Shown: positions 20,563 through 41,314 of the stretch, one piece after another
How the letters are laid out: every line of letters starts with the position of its first letter
How positions within the stretch are numbered: position 1 is the first letter of the stretch
Virus record (IMG/VR): IMGVR_UViG_3300015050_000538
Location: 1-42,707 of that record
Length of the DNA stretch: 42,707 nt
Direction: 5' to 3' (one strand)
Origin: a virus
Taxonomy: Duplodnaviria > Caudoviricetes
Program-made: the position numbers and the translations under genes
Notes under the pieces: model-generated
Told to the model about the DNA's origin: nothing
The model's database searches: none
The model's input: only the letters and a program-made list of their open reading frames with translations

Positions 20563-20668
20563 TCTTAGCTTTCACTGTGGGTTTGAAGAGAGCTGCTAGT
20601 TTAGAGCTGGCCTTAAGAAGCGCAACTTGCTTATTTTCCGTAAGCGGAGACTTGGCTGGTACTTTCAT
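20555..20668 (-). CDS. Small basic hypothetical protein, 37 aa (MKVPAKSPLTENKQVALLKASSKLAALFKPTVKAKNE), not in the ORF track
   Basis: Read by hand; bridges terS and terL, and its stop lies just inside the terL start; weak RBS. Confidence 0.4.
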   Translation of the reverse strand: MKVPAKSPLTENKQVALLKASSKLAALFKPTVKAKNE

Positions 20669-21230
20669 TGGCTGAGGTTTCCAAAGAATTGGTTCTTGCG
20701 ACATTAGAGGCCTCGTCAAATTCATTCTGGCTATTTCTGAGAGTCATTTGAGCGAAGAGATTCTTAACTCCACCAGCAGACATAGGAGCCAGTGGCTTAT
20801 TATCTATAGCTACCACCTCAGACTTCTCGTTGAGAGTCATTACAGGAGCAGGGAGGATATGCTGAGGCAGGTAGATATGAGCAATTTGCGTAAGACCTCC
20901 TGCTGGAACAGCAGCTGCTGGGTGCTTACGCTTATAACGTGCATCATTAGCCCGAGTAACTGAGTCGAGGGCCTTAGTAAGGTCACCGATCTCAGCTCCA
21001 GCTAGCTCCTCATTCATCCGCTTGACGATATTATGCTCAAGAGACTGATAGCGGGACTCAAGCACCTCATCAGCTGGCTTCTGATTGGTGATAAGAGCCT
21101 GCTCAACCTCAGCTTTGAAGTTCTCATCTTTCATCAGCTGGCTGATATAGCCTGGGGAGCAGCCAAGAATAGTAGCTACATCAGCGGCTTTGAGCCCATC
21201 AGCTAGGTAAGCTTTGATTCGTTCTTTCAT
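20631..21230 (-). CDS. terS: Terminase small subunit (N-terminal HTH), 199 aa
   Basis: HTH-like LKAADVATILGCSPGYISQL followed by helices; upstream of terL; AGGAG RBS. Confidence 0.65.
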   Translation of the reverse strand: MKERIKAYLADGLKAADVATILGCSPGYISQLMKDENFKAEVEQALITNQKPADEVLESRYQSLEHNIVKRMNEELAGAEIGDLTKALDSVTRANDARYKRKHPAAAVPAGGLTQIAHIYLPQHILPAPVMTLNEKSEVVAIDNKPLAPMSAGGVKNLFAQMTLRNSQNEFDEASNVARTNSLETSANESTSQVSAYGK

Positions 21231-21867
21231 TCTTTTCTCCTAAGAGATTCCATTGAGAGGCCATAGCTTCTGCTATGCAAATACGGGTTCTACTGCGCTC
21301 TTTCTCTCTTCCAGCATAAGGACTGACCTCATGAGCTTCGTGGAATATCTCATCGTAATCTCTTCTTGTATGTGTTGTCTTGAGATTAGGAAGATTCTTG
21401 AGCCAGAGAGCAGCAGTCTTAGAATAAGGTTCACCAAACATCCAGGGCTGAAGAAGCTGATTAGGCTTTCCCAGCAGATCCATTGCAAGACCATGAGGCT
21501 TAGAGTTTTCAAGGCAGATTCTAGGAACAGGTGCATCCCAGAGAAGCTTGAAGAACTCTATACCTTCCTCGAATTCTTTCATTCTATCAGGATAATCTGG
21601 ATGCCTTCTTCTCTGTTCTTTAGGAAGAGCCGAATCTTCTGGGTGGTAGAACCAGCGGATACCAGCTAATGCATTGAATGTGCAGTAGGGAAAGCCGATG
21701 AGAAGATCCCAGCAACCTGGCTTAAGAAGTTCTCGCACATCACATTGATAATGGAAAGGAGAAGGGAGCTCAGACTTTCGTAAGTCACAGGAGAAGGCAT
21801 TATGGCCTCTTCTTCTAAAAGCATCACGTACTCTTCCGGAGAATTCACATGCTATAAGGATATTCAT
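21199..21867 (-). CDS. Short C5 cytosine DNA methyltransferase-like protein, 222 aa
   Basis: MNILIACEFSGRVRDAF (SAM-binding variant), SCDL, WDLLIGFPYCT (motif IV variant), LEN (motif VI), QPWMFG and KTAALWL; start placed at MNILIAC. Confidence 0.75.
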   Translation of the reverse strand: MNILIACEFSGRVRDAFRRRGHNAFSCDLRKSELPSPFHYQCDVRELLKPGCWDLLIGFPYCTFNALAGIRWFYHPEDSALPKEQRRRHPDYPDRMKEFEEGIEFFKLLWDAPVPRICLENSKPHGLAMDLLGKPNQLLQPWMFGEPYSKTAALWLKNLPNLKTTHTRRDYDEIFHEAHEVSPYAGREKERSRTRICIAEAMASQWNLLGEKNERTNQSLPS

Positions 21868-21884
21868 AGGTGGCCCTTTCGAAC

Positions 21885-21929
21885 ATTCTATCACAGACCT
21901 TGGCCCTTTCTGCTACGCAGAGTATAGCA
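21885..21929 (-). promoter_or_regulatory. Candidate late promoters: two extended -10 elements
   Basis: Minus-strand TGcTATACT (21921-21929) and TGaTAGAAT (21885-21893), with no correctly spaced -35. Confidence 0.4.
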
Positions 21930-22051
21930 TCCTTCTAGGGAGAAACTGGATGACAAGCTGATCTGGTTGGAGGGATATTATAATGTATGTTTACAGAAAA
22001 GTTTAGAAAAATGCGGGAGAGAGTATTGATACACGCGCGCGCGGCAGGACC

Positions 22052-22080
22052 AAAAAAAAGCCTACCGGGCGGGGTAGACT
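22052..22080 (-). terminator. Rho-independent terminator closing the leftward early unit
   Basis: Minus strand GTCTACC-ccgccc-GGTAGGC followed by T8. Confidence 0.8.
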
Positions 22081-22115
22081 AATTCCTTCGAGCTAATGAG
22101 AAACCAGGCGGCTGC

Positions 22116-22310
22116 TTATTCTTCAATCAATTGCTTTATTCTAATCAACATCATCTTCTTATCTATTGCAGGCAATTGGCCATCATCAACTGCATTATCA
22201 ACATCAATTAGAAATGATTCCAATTGATTAAGCATAGTTAACTCACGCCTCATTAGATTATCTCGCACTGTGCGAGGAATCATTTTCCTTTGATAGATAC
22301 CGCGTGGCAT
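22116..22310 (-). CDS. Small early hypothetical protein, 64 aa
   Basis: GGAG RBS; third gene of a compact operon. Confidence 0.7.
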   Translation of the reverse strand: MPRGIYQRKMIPRTVRDNLMRRELTMLNQLESFLIDVDNAVDDGQLPAIDKKMMLIRIKQLIEE

Positions 22311-22324
22311 ATTCTATTCTCCAA

Positions 22325-22564
22325 TCAATTGAGGGTTTTCTTAATGGCATTCTTGAATGCAAGCTCATTAATTCGAGCGCATTCTAATTCAATTGCCTTT
22401 TGATTATCCGCCGTTTTAATTACCTTAACCTTAACCCATTCTCCTGATTGATCCATTTCAACGGCTTCAAACATTGCAATTGATTGCTCATAATCTCCGA
22501 ATTGAATTGAATAACCCGGATTGATATTATCAATTGCAATAACGGAATAATAAAGCTTGGACAT
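22325..22564 (-). CDS. Small early hypothetical protein, 79 aa
   Basis: AGGAG RBS. Confidence 0.75.
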   Translation of the reverse strand: MSKLYYSVIAIDNINPGYSIQFGDYEQSIAMFEAVEMDQSGEWVKVKVIKTADNQKAIELECARINELAFKNAIKKTLN

Positions 22565-22584
22565 AATTAGATTCTCCTGATTGA

Positions 22585-22749
22585 TTAGATAGGGCGACGC
22601 TTACCAAATGCAACAAAATAGAATAAGCCAATTGCAATACCGCGCTCTTCAAATGCAATAATTGCAGCGTCCTTAATACCAAATGCACGAATATCATCGC
22701 GGATCAAATCTGCCATTGTGATTGGCTTGGAAACTTTGCGCTTGGACAT
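22585..22749 (-). CDS. Small early hypothetical protein, 54 aa (MSKRKVSKPITMADLIRDD...), not in the ORF track
   Basis: Read by hand; GAGG RBS, directly downstream of the promoter at 22782-22811. Confidence 0.65.
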   Translation of the reverse strand: MSKRKVSKPITMADLIRDDIRAFGIKDAAIIAFEERGIAIGLFYFVAFGKRRPI

Positions 22750-22781
22750 AATAAACCTCTAAATAAGTTAGTGAGGCTTGC

Positions 22782-22811
22782 AGTATCTCATAGAAGTTTA
22801 GAAGCTGTCAA
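22782..22811 (-). promoter_or_regulatory. Sigma70-type early promoter
   Basis: TTGACA (22806-22811), 18-nt spacer ending in TGn, then GATACT (22782-22787). Confidence 0.75.
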
Positions 22812-22819
22812 CCTAGCAT

Positions 22820-22831
22820 CCGACGAACGGT
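22820..22831 (-). promoter_or_regulatory. AlgR-type box, copy 1 (ACCGTTCGTCGG)
   Basis: Contains the ACCGTTCGTC AlgR consensus, 8 bp upstream of a -35; identical 12-mer at 23685-23696. Confidence 0.55.
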
Positions 22832-22846
22832 CACGCACTTAGTCCG

Positions 22847-22880
22847 GCTTACCTGGCATCCTCTCAGCTTACCTGGCATC
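22847..22880. repeat. 14-bp direct repeat GCTTACCTGGCATC x2, 20-bp period
   Basis: Copies at 22847-22860 and 22867-22880. Confidence 0.85.
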
Positions 22881-22887
22881 AGACAAT

Positions 22888-22920
22888 AAAAAACCCGCCA
22901 GCTTCTCAGCGTGGCGGGTT
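22888..22920 (-). terminator. Rho-independent terminator after the 193-aa gene
   Basis: AACCCGCCA/TGGCGGGTT stem with a T-tract on the minus strand. Confidence 0.85.
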
Positions 22921-22944
22921 AGTAAGGAGAACTAAGCGAGTGGC

Positions 22945-23526
22945 TTAGAAGTCAGCAGTAGCAGAATCGCAGACTTCAAGGATGCTCTCGATAGGACGCT
23001 GATAACGCTCTAGCGTTTCCTCATCCAACGAGGTAGCGAACTGCTCAACATAGGCTTTCAGCTTACCCTTGTGATCGGGAGTAGCAAGCTCAAGAGCCGT
23101 CTTGTTGCTAAAGTAGCTCACCATAACCTTAACGGTAGCAGCAGACTTACCAAGGGTATTAGCCCACGTGGCGAAAGCTTCTTTGACTTCGCGGGCCAAT
23201 TGCAGCGCAGCACCGTTACCGCCACGCTCACCCTCAGCGCACAATTCCTCCCAATTAGTAGGAATCTTGAGGCCATCTTTAACTTCAGCAGTACCGGGCT
23301 TCAGTTTGTTACGAGCATTGGCTTTCACATACGCCAGCATAGCGCTTTGCACCCAGTTAGCAATATCGCTCTCGTAAGTGGGCAGACCGTCTTCTGTGCC
23401 TGTCACTTTAGCACCTGCAACGACTGCTGCAATATCCGTCAAGACTGGCACCACAATAGGCACTTCACCTTGTTTCTCATATTTGCCACCAACTTTTTTT
23501 GACACTGCAATGATAATGTTTTCCAT
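22945..23526 (-). CDS. Monocistronic early protein of unknown function, 193 aa
   Basis: Own promoter and terminator; AGGA RBS; ends in ...ATADF. Confidence 0.85.
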   Translation of the reverse strand: MENIIIAVSKKVGGKYEKQGEVPIVVPVLTDIAAVVAGAKVTGTEDGLPTYESDIANWVQSAMLAYVKANARNKLKPGTAEVKDGLKIPTNWEELCAEGERGGNGAALQLAREVKEAFATWANTLGKSAATVKVMVSYFSNKTALELATPDHKGKLKAYVEQFATSLDEETLERYQRPIESILEVCDSATADF

Positions 23527-23629
23527 GATATTTCCTAATAAGCTCTTAACACTAGAAGAAACAGTCTAGCCTGTTTGCTCTTATGAGCGGGTTGTTTATG
23601 GGCCGACTCTCGTCGTTGCCATGTGAGTG

Positions 23630-23657
23630 ATTCTACACCTGTTTTTGAGACTGTCAA
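23630..23657 (-). promoter_or_regulatory. Sigma70-type early promoter
   Basis: TTGACA (23652-23657), 16-nt spacer, TAGAAT (23630-23635). Confidence 0.7.
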
Positions 23658-23684
23658 CGGGTTTTTCTAGAAACTTCTTAGAAG

Positions 23685-23696
23685 CCGACGAACGGT
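23685..23696 (-). promoter_or_regulatory. AlgR-type box, copy 2 (ACCGTTCGTCGG)
   Basis: Exact repeat of 22820-22831, 27 bp upstream of the -35. Confidence 0.55.
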
Positions 23697-23754
23697 AGAT
23701 TCTGCGATAAGCGGTAGATTCTAGAAAGCTCTCACTCGATCACCCCCTCTCGAT

Positions 23755-24131
23755 TGTCAATTGGTCTTTTCGATCATGCCAGTCTCACTTATCCACCTAA
23801 TAGACCCCCCACAGTTTGCGCTGGCCATCCATCATCACCGACTAAATACAGATCGGGCTTCTAAGCTGTTAGCCATAAGCTGGAGTCTGGAAAGGAATAA
23901 ATAAGGGTATAGAAATTATTTAAGTAGAAAACAAAGAGAAAAATTTAAACTACACACATAAAAGACCTATTGCTTATCCTTCTACTCTTCGCAAGCTCAG
24001 AGCCTGAGATGCTACTTACAGAAGCTACTGAATAGGTTAGTTGGTCATAATAGGAATGTGGGTTCTACTGTGGGGGGTGGGATATGTAGATAACTGTAAC
24101 CGGCATGACCGACGGGACCGGGTGATTGACA
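23755..24131. repeat. Imperfect long inverted repeat around an AT-rich core; candidate replication origin
   Basis: Arms 23762-23815 and 24067-24120 align without gaps at 39/54 by hand count, including a perfect ACCCCCCACAGT; symmetry continues inward to about 23862/24020. Confidence 0.7.
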
Positions 24132-24259: not shown

Positions 24260-25549
24260 ATGTCAGATACTTTCAAACATAATGCGTTTACAGCGTTCTT
24301 CTCGGATACGCGAAGCGATAAAGCAGCCCCCCATGATTCTATCAACCCAGAATCTAGCTCTTCTAAAGAGTCTGTTCCTGCTAATAACAAATTGGCTGAG
24401 ATAAACGCCAGAATCTCCGAGCGCACAGCTTCCCTCGTTCAGTATAATGCACAGCGTCAACGCTTCTCCAAAAGAATTAATCTTGCTAATAGCAATGAGC
24501 ATGTAGCCGCAGTCTGTGATTATACTGGTGCTGTAGTTGCTATCACCTTTCCTTCTATTCCGGGCCGCGTGTTCTCCTACTCTTCTCCACTAGCTGATCT
24601 AAGGAATGCTCGCGGATTGGCTCAAGAAGGCAAAGATTATCTTCGCAAGCTGGACATTCAAACTGCTGCTGCTGTCCTTATAACGCTGGCTGACGATTAT
24701 TCTCTTTTCCGTTATCAGCCTTCCGACAGTGGCGCACAAAAGAACGCTATTCTGCGAACAGTGGCCAAAGATATTCTAATTGATTCCATTCTCTTTATCG
24801 AAGAGTTTATCAATTCTAATAACTGCAACTGGATTCCACGGCTCTCTCTCATTCTCTCCGAGGAAATTATCCAAGGTGGCATCCAGCATAGAATGCAAGA
24901 GTGGCTTAAAGTATCTCTCGATGCTGTTTACAAGCCTGATGAAGAGTCTTATGAGGATGCTGCCACTAGAAGCATTAAAGAGAATCGCTCCTATGCTCAT
25001 AAGCCTGTAACTAATGCTGCAACTAAGCGCACAGCATTGGCTTTGCAGAAAGATTTTAGGCAATGGAAGCGAGAGTCTAAAGACATCATTATCGGCATGT
25101 CTTCTGATTCTACCATCAGCCCCAAGCTTAAAGGCTTCTTGCTTACTCTGATCTCTGACCAGAATCTGATGCTTGCAGACAATTCTAATATTGCTCTGAT
25201 CTGCGAGAAGCTGAATCAGATTGATTCTAAGGCTGCTAAAGAACTGGCTGCTAAGATTGTGTTCTTCCGCGCCAAGCTGCTGGATTCTGAAGAGTCTGAG
25301 TTCTCTAAGCCTGCAACTGAGACATTCTCTGCTCTTTCACCCGGCCAATATGTCGGTGATTCTAAAGCAGAAGATAATGAGTTCGCTGCTCCTACTGCTA
25401 CTCTAGTTGCTGCTGTTTCTGCTGCTCCTACTGGTCCTGTTCTTAGCTTCAAAGAGCGCATCATGCTTCTGAAAGCGCAGCAAGCTGCGGCCTCTTCCTC
25501 TTCTAATGTACAAACTTCTAAAGTGGAGAATGATGATGCTCCTTTCTAA
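24260..25549 (+). CDS. Hypothetical early protein, 429 aa (candidate replication initiator/loader)
   Basis: GGAG RBS; first gene right of the palindrome; helical body, disordered tail ending ENDDAPF; function is inference only. Confidence 0.8.
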   Translation: MSDTFKHNAFTAFFSDTRSDKAAPHDSINPESSSSKESVPANNKLAEINARISERTASLVQYNAQRQRFSKRINLANSNEHVAAVCDYTGAVVAITFPSIPGRVFSYSSPLADLRNARGLAQEGKDYLRKLDIQTAAAVLITLADDYSLFRYQPSDSGAQKNAILRTVAKDILIDSILFIEEFINSNNCNWIPRLSLILSEEIIQGGIQHRMQEWLKVSLDAVYKPDEESYEDAATRSIKENRSYAHKPVTNAATKRTALALQKDFRQWKRESKDIIIGMSSDSTISPKLKGFLLTLISDQNLMLADNSNIALICEKLNQIDSKAAKELAAKIVFFRAKLLDSEESEFSKPATETFSALSPGQYVGDSKAEDNEFAAPTATLVAAVSAAPTGPVLSFKERIMLLKAQQAAASSSSNVQTSKVENDDAPF

Positions 25550-26927: not shown

Positions 26928-28868
26928 ATGTCTCTCGAAACTCTTTCCGCTCGCATCGTTGAGCATAACGAACAGCGCAATTCTATTGTCGCTAAGCTCC
27001 TTGCTTCTAAGCGTTCGGCTAATTCTTTCCATAAGGAAGAACTGGCTGGCCTGACAGAAGCACAGCAGCTTGCAGCTTTTGAATCCTCTATCGAACAGGA
27101 GCTAGAAGATCGTGCAGCGGATAAAATCGCTCGGCATGTAGAAGCTGCAAGCACTGGCCCTAAAAGCTTTCTCGAAAAGCTCCGCCTTCGTAAAGAAGCA
27201 GAAGCTCTCGCAGCAGAGGAAATGGCCCCAGAACCTGAGCCTGAGCGCACAGAACTGTCTAAAGGCATCCAAGAATCCTTCTCTCTAAACATTGTCCTTA
27301 ATGAGAAGCAGCTTGTAGCTAAGGACTTTGCATTCCAAGGCAAGAGCTTCTGTCTTATTGGACCAGCAGGGACAGGTAAGACTACAGCGCAGCGTGCAGT
27401 AGCTGGTGCTTTGCTAGAAGATGGCCGCCTTGAACTCAGTTCGTATAAATATACGGATATTGCCACTGGCTTTTCTAGTATGAAGGAAGCACCTTCTATT
27501 GCCTTCGTAGCCTATACCCGTAGGGCTGCTAGCAATATGCGCAAGGCTATTCATAAGGACCCGATCCTTGCTGAGAAGCTGAAGTTCAACATCATGACCA
27601 TTCATGCTCTACTAGAGTATCGGCCAGAAACCTACTGGGATTCTATGGAAATGAAAGAGAAGTTCCGCTTTGCTCCTACGCGCAATGCTGAGAATCCTCT
27701 GACCATTACCCACCTTGTGATCGAAGAAGCTTCTATGCTTGGACTTGATCTGTGGGACAAGCTCTACGATGCATTGCCTTATGATGTGCAGATCATCTTC
27801 GTAGGTGACATCAACCAGCTTCCACCAGTGTTCGGTCCTTCTATCCTGAACTATGCACTGACTCAGCTGCCTATCGTAGAACTCACAGAAGTTTACAGGA
27901 ACCAAGGTATTGTGCTTGAGAATGCTCATAACATTCTTAATGGCCGCAAGCTCTTAGAAGATAAGGACTTCCACATTGTGCGCGGTAAGAATCCTACGCA
28001 GCTTGGTCAAGGTAAGATGTGCAGCGTAGTTACTAACATGCTCAAAGTCCTCTCTTCTACCATTGGAGATGATGGTCTGCCAGAGTATGATGTAGAGAAT
28101 GACATGATTCTGTCCCCATTCAATAAACAGGGGGGACGTGGGGAGAAGTCTGATCTTCACCTTGGAACTAATGCTATGAATAAGTGGATTGCACAGTTCG
28201 TAGGAGAGAGGCGTGGTGCTATTGTTCATGAGATTATCGCAGGCTTCAATAAGCTTTACCTTGCAGAGGGTGATAAGGTCATGTTCAACAAAAGGGATGG
28301 CGTTATTAAAAGCATCAATAGGAACCTACAATATCATGGCAAAGAGCCGCAGCTTCCGGGTAAAGACCTTAGCCGTTTCGGCACTCGGCTACTTGGGGTG
28401 GATTCTGATCTTGATTTCGACGATATGGCCGGTGAGCTTGATTATTCTAACTTTTCTCTAGAAGCCCTAGAGGATGAGAAAGGAGAACGCAAACAGCAAG
28501 CTTCTCACTCCGTAGTTATCGACTATGGTGATGGCATGGAAGAAGAAGTTACAGCAGCAGGAGATTTCTCCGAGGCTTCTTTTACCCTAGGCTATTGCCT
28601 TACTGTTCACAAAGCACAGGGCTCTGAGTGGCGCAAGGTCTTTATCTTGCTTCACAAAGATCATGCCATCATGTTGTTCCGTGAATTGTTCTACACAGCA
28701 GAGACAAGGGCCAGAACTAAGGTCACTATCATTGCCAAGGACTACATTATCGATCAGGCTATTTCCAACCAAAGGATCAAAGGTAGCAGCCTGAAGGATA
28801 AACTTGCTTTCTTCAATTCTGGTATCAATGATACTGTTTCTGTAACATGCACTAAGCCTTCGGCTTAA
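26928..28868 (+). CDS. SF1B helicase, RecD/Dda-like, 646 aa
   Basis: GPAGTGKTT, TIHALLEY, IEEASM, GDINQLPPV, LTEVYRN, YCLTVHKAQGSEW and FYTAETRA motifs. Confidence 0.92.
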   Translation: MSLETLSARIVEHNEQRNSIVAKLLASKRSANSFHKEELAGLTEAQQLAAFESSIEQELEDRAADKIARHVEAASTGPKSFLEKLRLRKEAEALAAEEMAPEPEPERTELSKGIQESFSLNIVLNEKQLVAKDFAFQGKSFCLIGPAGTGKTTAQRAVAGALLEDGRLELSSYKYTDIATGFSSMKEAPSIAFVAYTRRAASNMRKAIHKDPILAEKLKFNIMTIHALLEYRPETYWDSMEMKEKFRFAPTRNAENPLTITHLVIEEASMLGLDLWDKLYDALPYDVQIIFVGDINQLPPVFGPSILNYALTQLPIVELTEVYRNQGIVLENAHNILNGRKLLEDKDFHIVRGKNPTQLGQGKMCSVVTNMLKVLSSTIGDDGLPEYDVENDMILSPFNKQGGRGEKSDLHLGTNAMNKWIAQFVGERRGAIVHEIIAGFNKLYLAEGDKVMFNKRDGVIKSINRNLQYHGKEPQLPGKDLSRFGTRLLGVDSDLDFDDMAGELDYSNFSLEALEDEKGERKQQASHSVVIDYGDGMEEEVTAAGDFSEASFTLGYCLTVHKAQGSEWRKVFILLHKDHAIMLFRELFYTAETRARTKVTIIAKDYIIDQAISNQRIKGSSLKDKLAFFNSGINDTVSVTCTKPSA

Positions 28869-28878
28869 GGAGAAAAGA

Positions 28879-29115
28879 ATGATTCTCAAAACCCTGCAAG
28901 GCTACAGCCTAAAAACTGTAGTGAAGAACTGGCCTAGCTTAGTCCCTAACGCAGTCTTTACTGAGCCACTTGATTATGTAAACAAAGAAGATTGGGAGAA
29001 ATTAGCATACCAACGTGATGCATATGGCACAGCAGAAGGTATGCTTTATGGACTCAGCGTAGACGAGCAACTTATGCTCATGGAATTTATCATCCTCTCA
29101 GAACAGGAGAACTAA
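28879..29115 (+). CDS. Hypothetical protein, 78 aa
   Basis: AAGGAG RBS. Confidence 0.7.
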   Translation: MILKTLQGYSLKTVVKNWPSLVPNAVFTEPLDYVNKEDWEKLAYQRDAYGTAEGMLYGLSVDEQLMLMEFIILSEQEN

Positions 29116-29116
29116 G

Positions 29117-29632
29117 ATGTCTGACTACCTCACACCGCGCCAAGTAGAAGTCTATGAGCGACTCATTAAGAAGCTTCTTCAGCAGCCTAACAAAGAATGG
29201 CCTGATCGTACAGACTTCAGTGAGTCTGAGTGGGAGATCATGTCTGCATTAGAAGTAGAAGCTAATCAGTTTATGAACACTTCTAGTTGGATGGCTTCTC
29301 ACGTCCGTGAGCTTATTCAAAAATCAAATAACATGATGCAAGTTAATGCGGTAGAAACAAGCCCCGGCCTTGAGCAGCAATGCACTATGGACAAGTCTAT
29401 TGCTACTGTCTATGCTCTTGTCAACAAGCTAGCTGCTACAGACTCTCTCTATTCTATCCTCCTTAAAATCTACGATCACCCTGACATTGCTTGTCGTGGC
29501 CATGAGAATCTCTGGATGATGGACATTCACATTGGCAATGCTATGCGCAACTATGCTGCTAACGAACGAGCTAACATCGTTGCATTCCTCAAAGGTTTTC
29601 CCCAACAATCGGAGCCCGGTAATGACTTCTAA
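29117..29632 (+). CDS. Hypothetical protein, 171 aa
   Basis: AGGAG RBS. Confidence 0.75.
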   Translation: MSDYLTPRQVEVYERLIKKLLQQPNKEWPDRTDFSESEWEIMSALEVEANQFMNTSSWMASHVRELIQKSNNMMQVNAVETSPGLEQQCTMDKSIATVYALVNKLAATDSLYSILLKIYDHPDIACRGHENLWMMDIHIGNAMRNYAANERANIVAFLKGFPQQSEPGNDF

Positions 29633-29828
29633 ACTGCTTGCATTAGCTGCTCTTGCAGCACTAGCTAACGTAAGAATTCAAGAAGGCGAGGTTATGCCAC
29701 TGCGTAGAGAATCTTTAATCGAAGGTCCTAAGTTTGGCTATGATCCAGTTAGGACCGCTCAGTACAAATCTGATAAACCTAAGGTACGCAGTAGTTCTTT
29801 CAAACGTAACAAAAGGAAAAGCAAATGA
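29622..29828 (+). CDS. Hypothetical protein, 68 aa (MTSKLLALAALAALA..., basic C-terminus)
   Basis: GGAG RBS; hydrophobic N-terminus. Confidence 0.6.
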   Translation: MTSKLLALAALAALANVRIQEGEVMPLRRESLIEGPKFGYDPVRTAQYKSDKPKVRSSSFKRNKRKSK

Positions 29829-29989
29829 CTTCTAAACTCAAGCCCCATGAAACATTTTCTGTTATCTCTAATGCTGGCCTTGTGCCGCAGAAGCAGCAGA
29901 CCTATACCCCAGGATTTAAGAACGATAAGAAGGTATCTATGCGCCTTGCTATCGAAGCTCGTAAACAAGAATGCAAGAGGAAGCAATGA
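29825..29989 (+). CDS. Hypothetical basic protein, 54 aa (MTSKLKPHETF...), not in the ORF track
   Basis: Read by hand; AAGGA RBS and ATGA overlaps at both ends. Confidence 0.6.
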   Translation: MTSKLKPHETFSVISNAGLVPQKQQTYTPGFKNDKKVSMRLAIEARKQECKRKQ

Positions 29990-30180
29990 ATGACAATAAG
30001 AGTGAGTATGTACGTTATCTACTCATAGGTAGGAATGGTAACAAGATACTGTCTGAAGCTGCCCTCATATTCTATCATTCAGAAGTTCCTGTATCCGACG
30101 CTATGATCTACATGAATATACTAGAAACTAAGGTAGCTAAGGTTGCGCCAAAGTTTACATTAAAAAGGAAAACATCATGA
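29986..30180 (+). CDS. Hypothetical protein, 64 aa
   Basis: GAGG RBS, ATGA overlap. Confidence 0.6.
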   Translation: MNDNKSEYVRYLLIGRNGNKILSEAALIFYHSEVPVSDAMIYMNILETKVAKVAPKFTLKRKTS

Positions 30181-30386
30181 GAGTCTTTACCTGTAATAAC
30201 TTCATCGGTCATAATCCCGTTGGCACTGCTGCTGTTGTCGTAGCTGATGATGTGCACGTAGCTAGGCAAATGCTTGTAGAACATTTACAGGCTATTGGCT
30301 TACCTCAGGGTACTCATAAGCTAGAGCTTACTCAAGTACGTACTGCTAAACCTACAACTGTTATTCTTACTAACGGGAACTACTAA
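30177..30386 (+). CDS. Hypothetical protein, 69 aa
   Basis: AAGGA RBS, ATGA overlap. Confidence 0.7.
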   Translation: MRVFTCNNFIGHNPVGTAAVVVADDVHVARQMLVEHLQAIGLPQGTHKLELTQVRTAKPTTVILTNGNY

Positions 30387-30387
30387 C

Positions 30388-30606
30388 ATGACCGCACTTA
30401 AAATTGCTGAGCAAGTAAACATGAGCCTTGTATTCTCTCCTTTCAAAGGTGCATGGGTTCTTATCACCACACTTCCTAATGAGCCAGCAGTAGAGGACGT
30501 TCTCACTATTGCACAGGCTGAATACTGGAAGAAAGCAGGAGTTCCTAACATGACTTCTGATGCGCACATGAAGATGATCCCCTCAATGCTGGATATTTTT
30601 TATTAA
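30388..30606 (+). CDS. Hypothetical protein, 72 aa
   Basis: Starts 1 nt after the previous stop. Confidence 0.6.
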   Translation: MTALKIAEQVNMSLVFSPFKGAWVLITTLPNEPAVEDVLTIAQAEYWKKAGVPNMTSDAHMKMIPSMLDIFY

Positions 30607-30613
30607 GGAGAAC

Positions 30614-30793
30614 ATGATGCTTGATGTTTTTGGTTTTATTGTTATTTGTTCTTTAGTAGGCTCGATGGGATACATTGGAGGCCGAGATGATGGTAAGAAA
30701 GAGGGTATGGAGATGCTGCATGCTCAAAAATATTCTTGCCAGACACTTCCGGATAAGACCATTCACTGCTGGGAAAACAAGGAGAATAAATAA
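30614..30793 (+). CDS. Small membrane-anchored protein, 59 aa (MMLDVFGFIVICSLVGSMGYIGG...), not in the ORF track
   Basis: Read by hand; AAGGAG RBS, N-terminal TM segment, C-terminal Cys pair. Confidence 0.65.
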   Translation: MMLDVFGFIVICSLVGSMGYIGGRDDGKKEGMEMLHAQKYSCQTLPDKTIHCWENKENK

Positions 30794-31200
30794 TGTTTCG
30801 TTCAGGTAAATACAGACACTTCCAAGATCCCAGAAATTGGCCTAATGAAAAGCTCAGAGAACTGTACAAGCAATCTGGTACAGACAAGGGCATGAAGATT
30901 GCTATTACCCGTGAGCTTAATGCTAGAGCTGGTAAGACTCCACTACACTCCCCGCAATCTAAGAGGCAACGAGCAATGCAATGGGCCATGATGAATGCTA
31001 ACAATAGCGTAGGTATTCTTCAGCGTGAAATCTATACTCTGTCTGACCTGTCTAAGTATGTTTCTTGTGCAGAAAAGCGTAAGATCAATGAGCATATTAT
31101 CCATGTCGAAGCTGCTATAGCTGCCTTGCAATTAGCTATCATTCGCAGCAAGAGGTTGTTTCCATCCAAGAAGTCCTTGAAGGAGAAAGAGAATGCGTGA
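30793..31200 (+). CDS. Hypothetical basic protein, 135 aa
   Basis: AAGGAG RBS, TAATG overlap. Confidence 0.7.
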   Translation: MFRSGKYRHFQDPRNWPNEKLRELYKQSGTDKGMKIAITRELNARAGKTPLHSPQSKRQRAMQWAMMNANNSVGILQREIYTLSDLSKYVSCAEKRKINEHIIHVEAAIAALQLAIIRSKRLFPSKKSLKEKENA

Positions 31201-31543
31201 CATTGATGATGATCCCATTGGTCCTAAGCCACTCACTCCCGGTATCTGGATTGCATTAGGTACTATCTCCTGGGATTCTTCTCGTATTGTTTGCAAGGAG
31301 CTATTCGATATAGACCATCAAGACCATAGCCGTCGTGCTTCTTCTCTCCCTCTTACCCTCTGCATTGTAGAGATTTGTTATGCACAAAGACAAAGTCTTG
31401 GCTTTGAGACTGCTGGCACTAGCAGCCATTTGTATTCTGCTATGGCTAGAATAGAACTGATCTGCAACTACTACACTATCGAAGAGCAAGAGGCTATTTA
31501 CAGGCACCTAGCTACTAGAAAAAAATCTCGATCACCCGGTTGA
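31193..31543 (+). CDS. Hypothetical protein, 116 aa
   Basis: AAGGAG RBS. Confidence 0.65.
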   Translation: MRDIDDDPIGPKPLTPGIWIALGTISWDSSRIVCKELFDIDHQDHSRRASSLPLTLCIVEICYAQRQSLGFETAGTSSHLYSAMARIELICNYYTIEEQEAIYRHLATRKKSRSPG

Positions 31544-31568
31544 CAAGTCAATCGATCACTGTTATACT
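31540..31568 (+). promoter_or_regulatory. Near-consensus sigma70 promoter for the middle/replication operon
   Basis: TTGACA (31540-31545), 17-nt spacer ending in TGn, TATACT (31563-31568). Confidence 0.88.
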
Positions 31569-31588
31569 TTCATATTCTGGAGTTACAA

Positions 31589-31834
31589 ATGCAACTTATT
31601 AAATCTTGGCTTGCCTTATTCAAGTCTCCTACTATCGAAGATGACGCAGAAGCTCAGGCTGCTCGTGCATCAGAAGATATTGCACAGTCCAATGCTACTA
31701 TCAAGCGGGCTGAGTATATCCGGCACATGGCAGAGTGGAAGCTTAAGGCAGTAGCTGCTTGGGCCACTTCTCAAGAACGCTCTGAGCGTGCATCTTCTTT
31801 CCTTGCTCGTGCTAATGGAGATAAAAATGGCTAA
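31589..31834 (+). CDS. Hypothetical protein, 81 aa
   Basis: GGAG RBS; first gene after the promoter. Confidence 0.7.
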   Translation: MQLIKSWLALFKSPTIEDDAEAQAARASEDIAQSNATIKRAEYIRHMAEWKLKAVAAWATSQERSERASSFLARANGDKNG

Positions 31835-32177
31835 TGAAATGCCTATTGATTTTGTCGATGACGACCCAGATGATAATGAATATTCTTATCGTCGTGTCCT
31901 CGATCTGCTGATGGAAAAGAAGGAGCTTATCCTTACCATCGAAGAGCCTTCAGCTAAGCCACTTAAAAGGAATCTTACTGCTCTTAAAAGCAGGGATGCT
32001 GCTAAGCTCAAAGGTGCTGGCCTCGAAGTTGGTGATGAGGTTCTAGGCTACACTGCTTATCCTACTAAGGAAGGCGATGAAGGCCACGGACCTAACATGA
32101 TTAAGCTCCACATTACTTACGGCCCACGTAAGACTGTGAAGATTCATAAGTTGGAGGTACCTGATAATGAGTTCTAA
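31827..32177 (+). CDS. Hypothetical protein, 116 aa (starts MANEMP)
   Basis: GGAG RBS. Confidence 0.7.
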   Translation: MANEMPIDFVDDDPDDNEYSYRRVLDLLMEKKELILTIEEPSAKPLKRNLTALKSRDAAKLKGAGLEVGDEVLGYTAYPTKEGDEGHGPNMIKLHITYGPRKTVKIHKLEVPDNEF

Positions 32178-32412
32178 GAAGCCCGGTCGCAAGGGTATTC
32201 CTTACAGCATGGATGCTGACATGGTACGCACTCACATAAGAGAGAAGATTGAAATTATGGGCGTCTCTATGCGGGAGTACGCTGATATGTGCGGCTACGA
32301 TCATACACATCTTTCTAGGGTCTTGAATGGTCATAAGGAACCTGGGTCTAAGATCTTAGCTGCTGAGGGAATGCACGCTGTTGTTTACTATGAATACAAA
32401 GAGGATGAGTAA
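32167..32412 (+). CDS. XRE/Cro-family helix-turn-helix regulator, 81 aa
   Basis: SMREYADMCGYDHTHLSRVLNGHKEPG matches the XRE HTH pattern; GGAGG RBS. Confidence 0.8.
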   Translation: MSSKKPGRKGIPYSMDADMVRTHIREKIEIMGVSMREYADMCGYDHTHLSRVLNGHKEPGSKILAAEGMHAVVYYEYKEDE

Positions 32413-32414
32413 TT

Positions 32415-32627
32415 ATGGCAAACTCTGAACTTTCCGCTATTGACCAAATGGCTGCTGATAAACAGAAGATCAAAGACCTATTCAATGCAGCTGATTATCT
32501 CAGTGCATGGGAGACTGGCTTTCTTCGCAGCATCCAAGGCCGGCTTGATCGTGCTTATCCTCTTTCAGAGAAGCAACGTGATTGTCTTGATAAGATGGTA
32601 GCTAAGGCTGCTGAAAGGTTTGACTGA
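32415..32627 (+). CDS. Hypothetical protein, 70 aa
   Basis: LSAWETGFLRSI...LSEKQ pattern seen in small phage helical domains. Confidence 0.7.
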   Translation: MANSELSAIDQMAADKQKIKDLFNAADYLSAWETGFLRSIQGRLDRAYPLSEKQRDCLDKMVAKAAERFD

Positions 32628-32803
32628 TGTACACACTCATTCTTCTGATCTACGTGGGTATGCTCTCCGATAAAGATAGCGTAGCTATTACAAGCATCCC
32701 GTTCCCTAACCAACAACTCTGCGAACAGGCAGGACAAGCTAGTAAGAAGCTAGTGCAGGGCACAACCAAAGCTCAGTCCTATGTTTGCGTTAAGTCTAAC
32801 TAA
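32627..32803 (+). CDS. Small secreted or membrane protein, 58 aa (MYTLILLIYVG...C...CV), not in the ORF track
   Basis: Read by hand; TGATG overlap, hydrophobic N-terminus, two Cys. Confidence 0.65.
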   Translation: MYTLILLIYVGMLSDKDSVAITSIPFPNQQLCEQAGQASKKLVQGTTKAQSYVCVKSN

Positions 32804-32814
32804 TAGGAAAGATC

Positions 32815-33441
32815 ATGGGACTTAAAGAAATCCTAGCAGCTAAGAAGGCTGCCGCACTTGCAGAAGAGGCTGCTAAAACCACCACGAAAGCAGAAGATGC
32901 GCCCAACAATCCTGACAGCCCTGTTGTCGAATCCCCGGTACTGGCCCCGCCCGTATCTGCCTTGGACTACGAGCCCGAAACTCCGGCAGCTACTAACCTA
33001 CCTGACAAGGTTCTGACCTTTGCTGAGAAGATGGCTCTTAAGAAGTCTGGTGTTGTTGCAGCTCAGGCTGTGCCTCAAGCACCTGCTAAGCAGCTCGGTC
33101 CAGTAGAAATTGACCCGGCTCTTATTCCTGAGAACCCAGAGGATGCACAGGCTTACGTAGACATTAAGACTAAGATTCATAATCTCGAAGCGATGTTCGA
33201 TGATGATCTTAAGAACGCAATGTCTGAGCTTAAGCAGGCTCTTAAGAAGAACCCTAATGCTACTGACCTCATGCTAGATGCTGATGTTGGCAAGATGGTT
33301 ACTGCTCTTCGGCGCATGACTCATGTGGCTCAGGTCGAAGCTACTACCAAGACCAAAGCTGGTAAGACTAAGACTGCTGTTAAGGTTAAGGATGTGCCTC
33401 TGACTAAAGAGCAAATCGAAGCAGCCTTCGACGAACTCTAA
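32815..33441 (+). CDS. Hypothetical protein, 208 aa, with disordered N-terminus and helical core
   Basis: AGGA RBS; strong codon bias. Confidence 0.8.
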   Translation: MGLKEILAAKKAAALAEEAAKTTTKAEDAPNNPDSPVVESPVLAPPVSALDYEPETPAATNLPDKVLTFAEKMALKKSGVVAAQAVPQAPAKQLGPVEIDPALIPENPEDAQAYVDIKTKIHNLEAMFDDDLKNAMSELKQALKKNPNATDLMLDADVGKMVTALRRMTHVAQVEATTKTKAGKTKTAVKVKDVPLTKEQIEAAFDEL

Positions 33442-33471
33442 AATAAAAGCAATTAGAAAGAAGGAATCACC

Positions 33472-33654
33472 ATGATTAAACACATCTGTCATTATCGGGA
33501 AGCTGCTGATTCTCCCCAGTGGGATGAAGAATTTGATGACAAGTCTGCTGCTGATAAGAAAGCTCTAGAAGTTTTTCTTAACGGTGGCATTGCTATTGTC
33601 ATTGAAGTAGAAGTTCCCGACTCCATTCAACTGTCCGTTCCAACGAAAGACTAA
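33472..33654 (+). CDS. Hypothetical protein, 60 aa
   Basis: AAGGA RBS. Confidence 0.6.
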   Translation: MIKHICHYREAADSPQWDEEFDDKSAADKKALEVFLNGGIAIVIEVEVPDSIQLSVPTKD

Positions 33655-33658
33655 GATC

Positions 33659-34171
33659 ATGACTGCACCTTTTAAGAAGTCTCCTAAGCCTGCTAAGCAG
33701 ATGCTCTCTAATGAGCAGACTATTTCGATGTTTGCTAACTGGGTTATGATGAACCCTTACGAGGACTATTCTCCTGTTCTTACAGCTATCAGCTCTGTAT
33801 ATGAGAAGGGCTTGATGGAATACAAAGCTATGGAGCCAGTAGCTGCTAAGGTTCCCATGCTGCATAAAGCACAAGAGCTTGTCCAAGGTGCTCGTCAATC
33901 AGACTACGGTGACAAGCTCCAGAACTTCACGCAGATTGCTATGCTGTTCCAAGGTGTTCTTGCTATGAAGCTCCAAGCTCAGGCTCGTATCACTCCAGAA
34001 GATGTTGCGATGCTCATGATGCAAGTCAAGCTGGCCCGTCTGGCTAAGTCCCCTGACCACTTTGATTCCATTATGGATGTGGCTGGATATGCTGCTTGCT
34101 TCTCGATGCTGCAAGATGAACGCGCTGCTGGCAAAGCTCTGCCGGGTGCATTGGTAGATCCTCGTGGCTGA
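33659..34171 (+). CDS. DUF6378-like domain protein (putative nucleotide-metabolism helical fold), 170 aa
   Basis: AQELVQGARQSDYG...NFTQIA...TPEDVAMLMMQVKLAR...HFDSIMDVAGYA. Confidence 0.75.
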   Translation: MTAPFKKSPKPAKQMLSNEQTISMFANWVMMNPYEDYSPVLTAISSVYEKGLMEYKAMEPVAAKVPMLHKAQELVQGARQSDYGDKLQNFTQIAMLFQGVLAMKLQAQARITPEDVAMLMMQVKLARLAKSPDHFDSIMDVAGYAACFSMLQDERAAGKALPGALVDPRG

Positions 34172-35060: not shown

Positions 35061-35074
35061 AAAGGCAACGCCTT

Positions 35075-35828: not shown

Positions 35829-35896
35829 TATTCTGCTGTTAGCAGGCTGTGGTGGTGGGGATTCAGAAGAGCCTATTACTTTTGAGAAAGACCGCT

Positions 35897-37133: not shown

Positions 37134-37188
37134 CTAATCATTAACTCTCTGACTTTTCATTTCACTTTTACTTATCTTAGGAACTATC

Positions 37189-37665: not shown

Positions 37666-37682
37666 TCTAGCAGAGTAACGCA

Positions 37683-37719: not shown

Positions 37720-37763
37720 CTCATTTATTCTGGCCCCTCTCTACTACAACAGCTAAGGAAGTT

Positions 37764-40058
37764 ATGCGAGTTCTTCTGAACTACGAAAAATCCGAGAAGG
37801 ATTATCTTGGCGGCATAGCCTATATGTTCCGTCGTCTTGGCATCGATGCAGTATCCTCCTCTATGAACTTAACAATTGGCGAGCTTATGCATAAGGCTAA
37901 GCTGGCTGGTTGCTCTGCTATTGTGTGCTGCAATGAACAGACTCTCCGTTATCTTGTTCCGGGTGAAGCACCTACTGTAGATAAGTGGCGCGGTACAAGG
38001 CTTAACTTTGACTTCCCAACTATTATCATCAACAAGCTGGCTCACATGCATACTGTGCCACATGGTAATTGGTTGCTGGAACAAGACTTGAGAAAGCTTA
38101 AGAGCATCTATAGGAAACCTACGCCCTTTTCCTACAAGAAGATCCTTGACCGCTATGCAATGGCTTTTGTTCTAGAAGAACTCTCGCAAGCTATTGTTAT
38201 CTCCCACGACATTGAGACTAAGACTCTGCCCGGACCTACGGAGCTGGAGGGTGGACCTACGCTTATTACTTGCGCAGGCTGGACTGGCGTATTCGTAGAT
38301 GGTACGCTCAAGACTTATGTCCTTCCTCTCATTGATTATGACGGCGATCATTGGCCAGATGACAGAGACTATATTGCAGCCATTAAATTTATGCGCTCTG
38401 CCAATGCTCTCAGTATTGCCAAGGCTATGCACAATGGTATGTATGATGCAACGCATTTGATCCGCTATCATTGCGAACCACATCATTACACTCTCGACAC
38501 GATGTACTTGGCTCACTCTGAATACTCAGAGCTTCCTAAGAGCCTTGACTTCGTAGCATCCTACACCCTATACGATTACGTATTCTGGAAGGATGATGCA
38601 GAGCAGGCGGCTAAGAAGAAAGATCAAGAGAAGTATTGGGCATACAACGCTAAGGATACTTGGTACACTGCAAGGATTCTGATCGAGCAGCTTCGCAAGT
38701 CGCAAGCTTATACGTTCACCAACTACAAGAAGCAGTTCCCACTTGTCTACCCCTCACTCTATTCTAACTTCGAGGGCATCAGGATAGATCAAGAGAAGCG
38801 TATTGAGCTGCGTACAGAAGCTGATAAGAACTTGCAGAAAGCAATGACTCGCTTGCAGACAATGTTTGCAGACCCTAACTTTAATCCAGGTAGCTGGCAG
38901 CAGGTGGAGAAATATGTCTACGATGTATTCGGCGCGAAGAAGCCAAAGATCGGCAAGTCTAAGAGTGGCACGGACGAGAAGAACCTCAAAGCCGTATCAG
39001 AACAGCACCCACTGCTCGCAAGGATTTGTGAAGAAATCTTGGAATACCGTGGTAGTCAGAAGGCTATCGGAACGTACTATGACTTTCTACAATGGAAAGG
39101 TCGTCTACTGTGGGCTCTCAATCCGTTCGGGACAGATACTAGCAGAATGGCTTGCTCAGCTTCCAGCCTTTGGGTTGGAACCCAAGTTCAGAATATCCCA
39201 GGGTATGCTAAGCCTATGCTCATTGCCGACGAAGGATTTGAAATCTTCGAAGCCGACAATAAGCAATCAGAAGGAAGGACCACTGCCTATTGTTCTCAGG
39301 AAGAAGCTCTCATCGCAGCGCTGGAAGATGCTGAGAAAGACTTCTATCGTACGCTAGGAACCTTGTTCTTCAATATGCCTTACGAGGAAGTCTCTGACTT
39401 CTTCCGCAATAAGGTTCTTAAGAAGATTGTCCATGGTACTAACTACATGATGGGTGCAGGAACTTTCATTGAGAATATCGGTGCAAGGATTCTGTATCAG
39501 ACTGCTCAGAAGCTTGGACTAGAGATTGTAGATATTGTTAAGGCTAACAACAAGAAGCAGAGAACTCTCAAGGGTTTTGCTAAAGAACTTCTTGACCTTT
39601 ATCATGCACCTTTCCCACGAGTTCGTATGTGGTATCAGGAGATTAAACATGAAATCAAAACAACCGGCTTCCTTGTATCACCACTCGGTCAGACTAGAAG
39701 ATTCTTCGGTGATATTGATAGAAATCATGCTATGCTTAGAGGGGCAGTTGCACATCAACCTCAGCAGCTCTCCGTCGAGATTCTCAATAAGGGATTTGTT
39801 CGCGCTTACAGAGATATTGTCATCCCATCTGAAGGAGACTTTAGAATCAAAGCGCAGATCCACGACAGTATCTTTGGGCAGTGGCGCATCGACAGAAGAG
39901 ACGAGTTCGCAGCAAGACTTGCAGAGTGCATGTATAATCCCGTCAAGATTCACGGACGTACTTTAGTTATTCCTATTGACATTAAGTACGGACAGAATTG
40001 GGGTGAGGCTGACGAGAGCAATCCTAATGGAACTAGGAAATACAAAGGGCTGAAATGA
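37764..40058 (+). CDS. polA: Family A DNA polymerase with 3'-5' exonuclease and degenerate N-terminal UDG-like domain, 764 aa
   Basis: Exo motifs HDIET, HNGMYD and YNAKD; TSRMAC, QNIP, motif A ADNKQSEGR, motif B KKIVHGTNY, motif C QIHDS. Confidence 0.93.
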   Translation: MRVLLNYEKSEKDYLGGIAYMFRRLGIDAVSSSMNLTIGELMHKAKLAGCSAIVCCNEQTLRYLVPGEAPTVDKWRGTRLNFDFPTIIINKLAHMHTVPHGNWLLEQDLRKLKSIYRKPTPFSYKKILDRYAMAFVLEELSQAIVISHDIETKTLPGPTELEGGPTLITCAGWTGVFVDGTLKTYVLPLIDYDGDHWPDDRDYIAAIKFMRSANALSIAKAMHNGMYDATHLIRYHCEPHHYTLDTMYLAHSEYSELPKSLDFVASYTLYDYVFWKDDAEQAAKKKDQEKYWAYNAKDTWYTARILIEQLRKSQAYTFTNYKKQFPLVYPSLYSNFEGIRIDQEKRIELRTEADKNLQKAMTRLQTMFADPNFNPGSWQQVEKYVYDVFGAKKPKIGKSKSGTDEKNLKAVSEQHPLLARICEEILEYRGSQKAIGTYYDFLQWKGRLLWALNPFGTDTSRMACSASSLWVGTQVQNIPGYAKPMLIADEGFEIFEADNKQSEGRTTAYCSQEEALIAALEDAEKDFYRTLGTLFFNMPYEEVSDFFRNKVLKKIVHGTNYMMGAGTFIENIGARILYQTAQKLGLEIVDIVKANNKKQRTLKGFAKELLDLYHAPFPRVRMWYQEIKHEIKTTGFLVSPLGQTRRFFGDIDRNHAMLRGAVAHQPQQLSVEILNKGFVRAYRDIVIPSEGDFRIKAQIHDSIFGQWRIDRRDEFAARLAECMYNPVKIHGRTLVIPIDIKYGQNWGEADESNPNGTRKYKGLK

Positions 40059-41314
40059 CGCAGAACCCAATTAGGATAGGTGATGACTTTATTAGTTCTT
40101 ACATGCGTCTATGCGATCTCGATAATTCTGAGGCCCCGGCTATCTATCATAGATGGGTTTGTCTTAGTATTCTTGGTGCTTATATGGGGCGCAAGGTCTG
40201 GATAGACTTCGGTATCGGGCCAATCTATCCTAACCAATACATCATGTTGATGGGCTCACCGGGTACTCGCAAGGGTGCTGCTATGGCCATTGGCAGGAGA
40301 CTTCTAAAAGCTACAGGGTTCAATAGATTCTCAGCAGACAAGACTTCCAAAGAGCGTTTCCTTATGGACATGAAGCAGTTTGATCTGCCTACGAATGCAG
40401 CTCTTGAGGATGTAGAGGACCTAGCTTTCGGTGATCCTTCAGAATCTTATATCATGTCAGGAGAGTTTACAGACTTCATTGGCCAAGGTAACATGGATTT
40501 TATTACCCTCCTCACGAACTTGTGGGACAACCTAGGAGAATACACACATCCTAAGATTCAGGGTAAGAGTGTGATGGTGCACAAGCCTACTGTTAATTTG
40601 CTAGGAGCTAACACTCCTGATGGATTTGCACTGGCCTTTCCTCCAGAAGCTTTGGGTAATGGATTCCTTTCTCGTGTGATCCTTCTCCATGCTGATCCTA
40701 CTTCTAACAAGATCGCATGGCCTACTGCACCTGACCCACTTCTGCAAGCCACTCTCGCTAATAGGATGATCGAAGTAAAAGATTCCATTAGCGGGGAGAT
40801 TGTTGTAACCAAAGAAGCCAAGGCTATTGGCAAGGAGATTTATGACAACGAGATTCCAGTAGATGATCCTCGCTTTATCCACTACCAACAACGACGATTT
40901 ACTCATCTGCTAAAAGTATCCATGCTACTTGCAGTATTTGATATGTCTGATAAGATTCTTCCACTCCATATTAAGAGAGCTAACAGCCTACTAGTACGGG
41001 CTGAGAGAGTTATGCCTAGGGCATTGGGAGAGTTTGGTGCTTCGAAGTATTCTTCTGTAGCTGGCAAGCTGCTATCCCACCTAGCTAACTGCCATAAGCC
41101 GCAGAGCCCCGGAGAATTGTTCCGGGTTATCAGTAGAGACATTGGTAAAATGTCCGAGCTTGTTGATATTCTTCAGAACCTCAAACACTCTGAGAAGATA
41201 CAAGCTGTTAGCGTTGGTGGAAAGAGTGGGTACTTGCCCATGCATAAGCCCAAGAAGGAATGGCCTGAGCATCTTCTTGATAATAGTTGGTTAACTGAAC
41301 AGGAGCTGATATGA
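40055..41314 (+). CDS. DUF3987-like P-loop ATPase (putative replicative helicase) with C-terminal winged-helix-like region, 419 aa
   Basis: YPNQYIMLMGSPGTRKG, GEF, LTNLWD, PTVNLLGANTP and GFLSR motifs. Confidence 0.7.
   Translation: MTQNPIRIGDDFISSYMRLCDLDNSEAPAIYHRWVCLSILGAYMGRKVWIDFGIGPIYPNQYIMLMGSPGTRKGAAMAIGRRLLKATGFNRFSADKTSKERFLMDMKQFDLPTNAALEDVEDLAFGDPSESYIMSGEFTDFIGQGNMDFITLLTNLWDNLGEYTHPKIQGKSVMVHKPTVNLLGANTPDGFALAFPPEALGNGFLSRVILLHADPTSNKIAWPTAPDPLLQATLANRMIEVKDSISGEIVVTKEAKAIGKEIYDNEIPVDDPRFIHYQQRRFTHLLKVSMLLAVFDMSDKILPLHIKRANSLLVRAERVMPRALGEFGASKYSSVAGKLLSHLANCHKPQSPGELFRVISRDIGKMSELVDILQNLKHSEKIQAVSVGGKSGYLPMHKPKKEWPEHLLDNSWLTEQELI

Follow-up and report, generated by a model that had tools for sequence, protein, structure and literature searches.

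A mirror-symmetric element with an AT-rich core in podophage genomes related to PaMx41: a possible phage-specific replication origin beside a putative genome end

Inverted initiator sites placed around an unwinding element are a familiar theme among replication origins, as in phage P4 ori1, archaeal oriC with its ORB elements, and the SV40 origin, with a G-string in archaea. Repeats on both sides of a functional site are also known from packaging: at P1 pac they flank the region of terminase cutting, and P1 packages its DNA by headful. The origin of the SaPI elements is described, in the available portion of a preprint, as a stretch of about 300 bp in which short iterons, three of them given as 7 nt plus AA, are oppositely disposed around an AT-rich region; the winged helix of a self-loading helicase binds these iterons, with one ring per side (bioRxiv 10.64898/2026.10.17.759575). 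For genome ends, T5 and SPO1 exemplify long direct terminal repeats with fixed ends and doubled coverage, according to the accessible part of the source (PMC5557969). The literature searched, which was short on subscription papers, holds no described origin or exact ends for the PaMx41/PaP2 phage group, nor an arrangement of the kind presented below; for long terminal-repeat phages, we found in it no description of a boundary inside a mirror-symmetric origin-like element, and it documents the copying of kilobase terminal repeats poorly. What is new here is the family-wide test of such a mirror element and its link to the genome end.

The DNA analysed, hereafter the window, is a whole circular contig of 42,707 nt with a 123-nt end overlap (1-123 and 42585-42707), and is a complete podophage genome. 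At the contig join, a two-way terminator-like hairpin lies where both gene arms converge. Packaging and virion genes occupy the minus strand to the left of the element, and genes for helicases, an exonuclease, a Sak4-like protein and DNA polymerase A occupy the plus strand to its right. Portal and large terminase group the window with Polaromonas phage Tiera, EBPR podovirus 3 and the Jamesmcgillvirus phages (Fredfastierviridae) PaP2, 119X and PaMx41, the last of which is a working model for anti-phage immunity. Jamesmcgillvirus and Tiera share gene order and both cis sites described below with the window, with portal proteins 36-50% and large terminases 41-63% identical, whereas the element region has no DNA similarity. 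A DNA search of that region against the phage collection gave no match, a search of bacterial genomes for the 193-aa gene found none, and neither an origin nor a terminal repeat is annotated in the Jamesmcgillvirus and Tiera sequence records examined. In PaMx41, PaP2 and G016, the module carrying gp01 has, as one cassette, the opposite orientation to that seen in the window, Tiera and most other relatives (L005 307-1950; L057 3360-4600), and in PaMx41 and G016 it is flipped between the core and the TATCAA site with both sites unmoved. Inverted terminal repeats or an assembly flip were rejected as explanations, as the records join cleanly.

The element (Table 1) is real. The preliminary description had aligned 23762-23815 with the reverse complement of 24067-24120 at 39 of 54 positions without gaps, and this pairing proves to be the best 54-nt inverted match in the whole window, equalled in none of 1000 shuffles; when the halves are aligned with gaps allowed, the score is 71, whereas the highest value among 1000 dinucleotide shuffles is 45. 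An inverted-repeat search of the window recovers the same arms, about 70% complementary with a 251-nt spacer. The inward continuation of the register was likewise borne out, with CACCGACTAA at 23836-23845, GCTTCT at 23857-23862, a coordinate sum of 47882 and the centre at 23941, and the AT-rich core noted there has the genome's lowest duplex stability over both 50 and 100 nt. The TTGACA hexamers with no matched -10 that were said to flank the element are present, and are not retained in all close relatives.

Table 1. Features of the window that bear on the element and on the putative genome ends
Feature	Position	Strand	Remarks
Second conserved site	21996..22042	-	GC-rich run, TATCAA, 19 nt, CTAAACTTTT; putative right genome end and/or late promoter
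Putative left genome end	23965..23980	-	By analogy with eight Jamesmcgillvirus records opening 30-31 nt before the core A-tract
Putative direct terminal repeat module, about 1.95 kb	22026..23978	.	193-aa gene, three small ORFs, two promoters, two terminators; suggested by depth and record ends
Whole element	23755..24131		About 380 bp, mirror-symmetric
Left arm	23755..23865	+	Array of degenerate ~9-bp repeats (GGTC/GATC-ATGCC type) at 23763-23798, then a C6 block at 23804-23815 and inner blocks as far as 23862
AT-rich core	23890..23970	.	Predicted unwinding element; lowest duplex stability in the genome
One-sided core motif, family-conserved	23939..23966	-	TATGTGTGTA-n-AAATTTTT on the minus strand
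Right arm	24017..24131	-	Mirrors the left arm, with a G6 block at 24067-24078 and repeats continuing to about 24127
193-aa family-wide protein, PaMx41 gp01 homologue	22945..23526	-	No clear fold match
429-aa protein, first early gene	24260..25549	+	No clear fold match; acidic tail ending in Phe
DUF3987 AAA+ protein	40055..41314	+	Weakly MCM-like, likely C-terminal winged helix; candidate self-loading helicase
Small terminase	20631..21230	-	Helix-turn-helix at its N-terminus; a candidate for reading the conserved core and end motifs
Sigma-70-like promoter (11/12) before the 193-aa gene	23630..23657	-	CCGACGAACGG box upstream, 23685-23695

For the family-wide comparison, 33 loci were gathered with a profile of the neighbouring 193-aa gene. 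The core was located by pattern in 19 loci and by eye in four more, counting the window, L038, Tiera and PaMx41, which gives a set of 23 genomes; outside it stand the same-species duplicates L007, L053, L055, L059, L063 and L023 (the last being the window's own record), the fragments L047 and L062, which do not contain the region, and seven loci with no match to the core pattern, which were tested afterwards. The core motif is one-sided and consists of TATGTGTGTA followed by an AAATTTTT tract, or of a shorter GGGTATTCAAATTTT variant. Around the core, 21 of the 23 genomes show significant mirror similarity (at most 7 of 300 shuffles), with 0/300 in 17 of them, and so do six of the seven loci initially left out (0/25 shuffles). 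Conservation among relatives, whose absence the preliminary description had held to speak against its reading, is found for the symmetry, which is significant at the equivalent place in 27 of 30 family genomes, and not for the sequence. The score is not significant in PaMx41 (30/300), L037 (67/300) and L039 (13/25), and in L049 the mirror centre is displaced from the AT minimum. Because the PaMx41 score is not significant and the TATGTGTGTA motif is absent from that phage, the equivalence of its element with that of the window rests on position and repeat polarity, with four CAAGGT units to the left and three inverted units to the right of the Jamesmcgillvirus record-start point; in PaMx41 coordinates the element takes in about 43250-43490 together with 1-300.

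The arms are matched within a genome and differ between lineages. The best partner of a left arm is the right arm of the same genome in 17 of 23 cases, the exceptions being close kin, and the layout from outside to inside is a few repeats of about 9 bp, a G or C run, a short block and a spacer. Among the 46 arms, the best period is a lag of 9 in 22 and a lag of 8-10 in 36, and the pooled observed/expected ratio at lag 9 is 1.21, compared with 1.02 in flanking controls; this period is weak in the window's own left arm. A scan of 13 whole or near-whole records, which counts Aeromonas phage P5, where no element was located, places the element as the top genome-wide mirror centre in 8 and as the least stable 60-mer in 7, with second rank in 3 more, and no second origin-like locus was found in these scans. 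In P5, a distant relative, the least stable stretch (L036 32850-33160) is a palindromic AT run in a non-coding gap, around which no mirror arms were detected. The Tiera record 43928 (L004 4929-5073) has a perfect 72-nt tandem duplication within one element arm, possibly a leftover assembly overlap. Some 30 natural variants, with arms alike within a genome yet wholly changed between genomes, constitute a ready data set for studying the co-evolution of an origin and its reader.

The 193-aa and 429-aa proteins, which flank the element, gave no fold match at E 0.001 (best Z 6.2; first Atlas hit 0.82). Both have short acidic tails with a final aromatic residue, and acidic tails ending in an aromatic residue are characteristic of single-strand-binding proteins. 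Exact CCGACGAACGG boxes occur at 22820-22830 and 23685-23695 and nowhere else in the genome. Both immediately precede a sigma-70-like promoter that points leftward, both are kept in close relatives, and they are likely an operator. The DUF3987 protein is found in 16 of 20 records and in all 10 that are near-complete; its family profile matches MCM3 at E 0.005, and its C-terminus gives weak matches to winged-helix families. No DnaG- or AEP-type primase domain was found in the 18 proteins scanned with Pfam (window 26928-42342), and the PHROG label "primase" sits on the DUF3987 protein. The helicase wing and helices show no co-variation with the arms (partial rho -0.06 and 0.13, 135 pairs), and two genomes with identical helicase wings have unrelated arms. 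The helix-turn-helix of the small terminase is conserved where arms are unrelated, and comparison of the arms with segments of the small terminase, 193-aa protein, 429-aa protein, large terminase and helicase gave weak co-variation, with rho of 0.0-0.4 confounded by kinship.

A second conserved site, TATCAA followed after 19 nt by CTAAACTTTT, is unique in each genome, is conserved as far as PaMx41 and lies between a terminator and the small terminase gene. The exact 25-nt spacing is kept in 20 of 23 loci, and a matrix of the site ranks it first genome-wide in 12 of 12 records, several of which helped to build the matrix. The site lies about 1.05-2.1 kb from the core, at a distance that varies with module content, and it could equally be a single late promoter of the activator type, a genome end, or both. 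A scan of the collection with the end motif returned 27 loci, 6 of them family members already in the set. Between the end motif and the small terminase, a DNA methyltransferase gene (21199-21894) is present in L001 and L009 and absent from L002 and L003.

Record ends and read depth connect the two sites. The DNA of PaMx41 is reportedly called linear and terminally redundant in its genome paper. The Tiera record ends directly after the conserved TATCAA (window equivalent 22025/22026); the accessible portion of the Tiera paper states that the reads were run through PhageTerm and the genome rearranged, and gives no end type for this phage (PMC9959647). On the other side, eight Jamesmcgillvirus records start 30-31 nt before the core A-tract, at a point that other records cross with neither gap nor overlap; these eight starts may all have been copied from PaP2. 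Partial virus records show no clustering of their contig ends at either the core or the TATCAA site. In public metagenome contigs of related strains, with one depth figure per contig, the ratio of module to neighbouring contig is 1.67, 1.76 and 1.92 in X3, X5 and X6 (three runs of one study), 1.84 in X2 (a second study) and 1.54 in X1 (a third study), and in X4 the module has a depth of 32.2 where 29.5 was expected. Depth over the module tracks the abundance of one strain, and contigs over the core stand at single level or lower. Because contig depth is not copy number, these ratios are a consistent hint and not a proof. In X1 and X5, the contigs over the left arm already show single depth, which a variable headful end fits as well as the loss of terminal reads does.

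Phage Shea, whose genome has been called "terminally redundant" (PMC13348215), is given little weight in this respect because its library was tagmented, a caveat raised in the available part of PMC5557969. Shea is reported to persist as an episome, and its long-read assembly from carrier cells measures 41,534 bp, compared with the 43,333 bp obtained from virions; the difference is near the size of the putative repeat module (PMC13348215). Protein-primed or hairpin-telomere ends of the phi29 and N15 types, which call for almost perfect inverted ends together with a family B polymerase or for a palindrome with no gap, were also considered and set aside in view of the roughly 70% identity of the arms, the 251-nt spacer, the family A DNA polymerase and the assemblies that cross the junction.

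Taken together, these features are best explained by a phage-specific origin at the inner boundary of a terminal repeat of about 1.95 kb, beside the left genome end, a reading to which we assign a probability of roughly 45%. The anatomy shared with the SaPI origin, together with the encoded DUF3987 AAA+ protein, suggests that such an origin is phage-specific, of SaPI type and likely helicase-loaded. The symmetric protein-binding blocks around an unwinding element proposed in the preliminary description are thus supported as an origin-like design, and the packaging site that it listed as an alternative is probably partly true, alongside the origin, because the element appears to border a terminal repeat of about 2 kb. 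The symmetry and its conservation, the periodicity of the arms, the low duplex stability, the depth step seen in relatives and the record ends are observations; origin activity, the reader protein and both cut positions are what we infer in the scheme that follows. A phage protein, most likely the DUF3987 AAA+ helicase acting through its winged-helix domains, would load one ring per opposed array; the AT core would be opened, and forks would depart both ways with no need for host DnaA. The position of the element on the repeat boundary suggests two further steps. In concatemeric DNA, copying of the terminal repeat would begin from this opened core, and terminase would make one cut some 30 nt away from the core A-tract, at about 23965-23980, and another at the TATCAA site, at 22025/22026. 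Each virion would then contain one intact origin 2 kb inside one end and half an element at the other end.

This scheme can be pushed further, to a dual-use chromosome end at which the mirror element serves as origin, as site of terminal-repeat duplication and as terminase cut, with arms that are rewritten together in each lineage and no matching change in helicase or terminase; we regard this full combination as speculative, with odds well against it. If true, packaging would halve the origin at one end and leave an intact copy 2 kb inside the other, and the joint rewriting of the arms would point to an unknown reader or to a sequence-independent symmetry rule. An origin on a repeat boundary is in any case a direct hypothesis for how kilobase terminal repeats are copied, and it comes with exact testable coordinates for origin and ends in a cultured phage.

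The alternative that survives best, though still improbable, is that the element is an origin with no role in end formation, packaging starting from the TATCAA site and a headful cut with about 2 kb of redundancy falling near the element by chance. All of the origin-like anatomy suits it equally, Tiera suggests one sharp end only, the left-arm contigs of X1 and X5 stand at single depth, and the core does not repeat the end motif: a motif common to the two sites was considered and dropped, because the end-site matrix placed the core anywhere from 8th to 603rd when the same strand was scanned in 12 genomes. However, depth ratios of about 1.7-1.9 would mean that almost every molecule ends at TATCAA, which, going by the available text of PMC5557969, is unusual for a processive headful series. 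Eight records also start inside the element, and the distance between the two sites ranges from 1.05 to 2.1 kb with module content, both of which speak against this alternative.

Those record starts and the depth step would also be explained by a pure packaging or end-processing site, at which the opposed arrays would recruit terminase or an accessory protein for cutting in the AT core, with replication starting elsewhere, as would the one-sided conserved core motif, which gives a direction, and the lack of co-variation between helicase and arms. This reading appears unlikely, given that the small-terminase helix-turn-helix is conserved where arms are unrelated, that the genome scans hold no other origin-like locus, and that most genomes show no arm-like sequence close to the other end; such repeats were sought there and dropped, reaching at most 2/100 shuffles in only 4 of 41 flanks.

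Pairing of the arms with each other, either as a single-strand fold-back or cruciform in repeat duplication or as an RNA hairpin, with template switching keeping them alike, is a very improbable account. The arms do evolve jointly with no particular sequence being kept, and each strand gives a better fold than its shuffled versions do (z -3.5 and -5.3). However, complementarity is only about 70% around a loop of about 250 nt, 395 of 659 arm mismatches are transversions, an apparent bias towards wobble changes disappears when composition is taken into account (p 0.70), and in L061, L064 and L065 a G-run on one arm faces a C-run on the other. With no sign of pairing kept through compensatory or wobble changes and no Rfam match, the features of a structured non-coding RNA are missing, and the long RNA hairpin that had been offered as an alternative is not supported.

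The DnaA-box-like sites of the preliminary description were correctly placed, at 23789 (+) and 24093 (-) in mirror position with one mismatch each, but they do not hold as DnaA boxes: the window genome has 14 one-mismatch sites and no perfect box, and in four close IMG/VR relatives the least variable parts are the AT core and the flanking promoter regions, not these 9-mers. With no conserved boxes beside the unwinding element, the mirror element is not a DnaA origin, and it is probably not read by host DnaA. The switch of coding strand is true of the window and fails as an argument, because with the gp01 module inverted in PaMx41 and G016 the element lies between co-oriented genes, so that the switch is not its cause. 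Cumulative GC skew, which had been named as a check, follows the coding strand, with its minimum 1.7 kb off the element in the window; it is uninformative and lends an origin no support. A DnaA-dependent origin or a divergent promoter control region, for which two mirrored 9-mers where 0.12 would be expected per 380 bp and the promoters flanking the element might speak, can therefore hardly be maintained when only 4 of 23 genomes carry one-mismatch boxes inside the element, the window alone has them on both arms and its closest relatives have lost them, and when the element persists between co-oriented genes in PaMx41 and G016.

Finally, the element with its putative role as origin and repeat boundary can be set against the known systems. 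Unlike P4 ori1, archaeal oriC and the SV40 origin, it has no separate Orc1/Cdc6-type initiator that we could find in this genome, and its arm sequence is not conserved family-wide. With P1 pac it shares short repeats on both sides of a region that terminase cuts in P1 and may cut here, but P1 packs by headful, the repeats here are lineage-specific, and GATC is not a family-wide feature. T5 and SPO1, so far as the accessible part of PMC5557969 describes them, resemble the present phages in what may be a roughly doubled depth over a module of early-type genes with strong promoters and in candidate fixed positions on both sides of the module, whereas the putative repeat here would be 1-2 kb long and would have one boundary inside a mirror-symmetric origin-like element. 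Compared with the SaPI origin as presented in the available portion of the preprint, the window belongs to a tailed phage with DNA polymerase A, and its repeats show much greater degeneracy and finish with a G/C run; it also has a conserved one-sided core motif, an apparent terminal-repeat border and no co-variation between helicase and arms. The SaPI origin lies directly downstream of the primase-initiator genes, whereas the element, at 23.9 kb, is 16 kb off the helicase gene at 40.1-41.3 kb, and because this position behind the pri-rep genes is not shared, the element is not a member of the SaPI class. It nevertheless appears to work like a SaPI origin: within about 300-400 bp it combines a central AT-rich region with opposed short repeats of a ~9-bp step, degenerate and weak in the window's left arm, in a genome whose DUF3987 AAA+ protein is weakly MCM-like and probably has a winged helix at its C-terminus.
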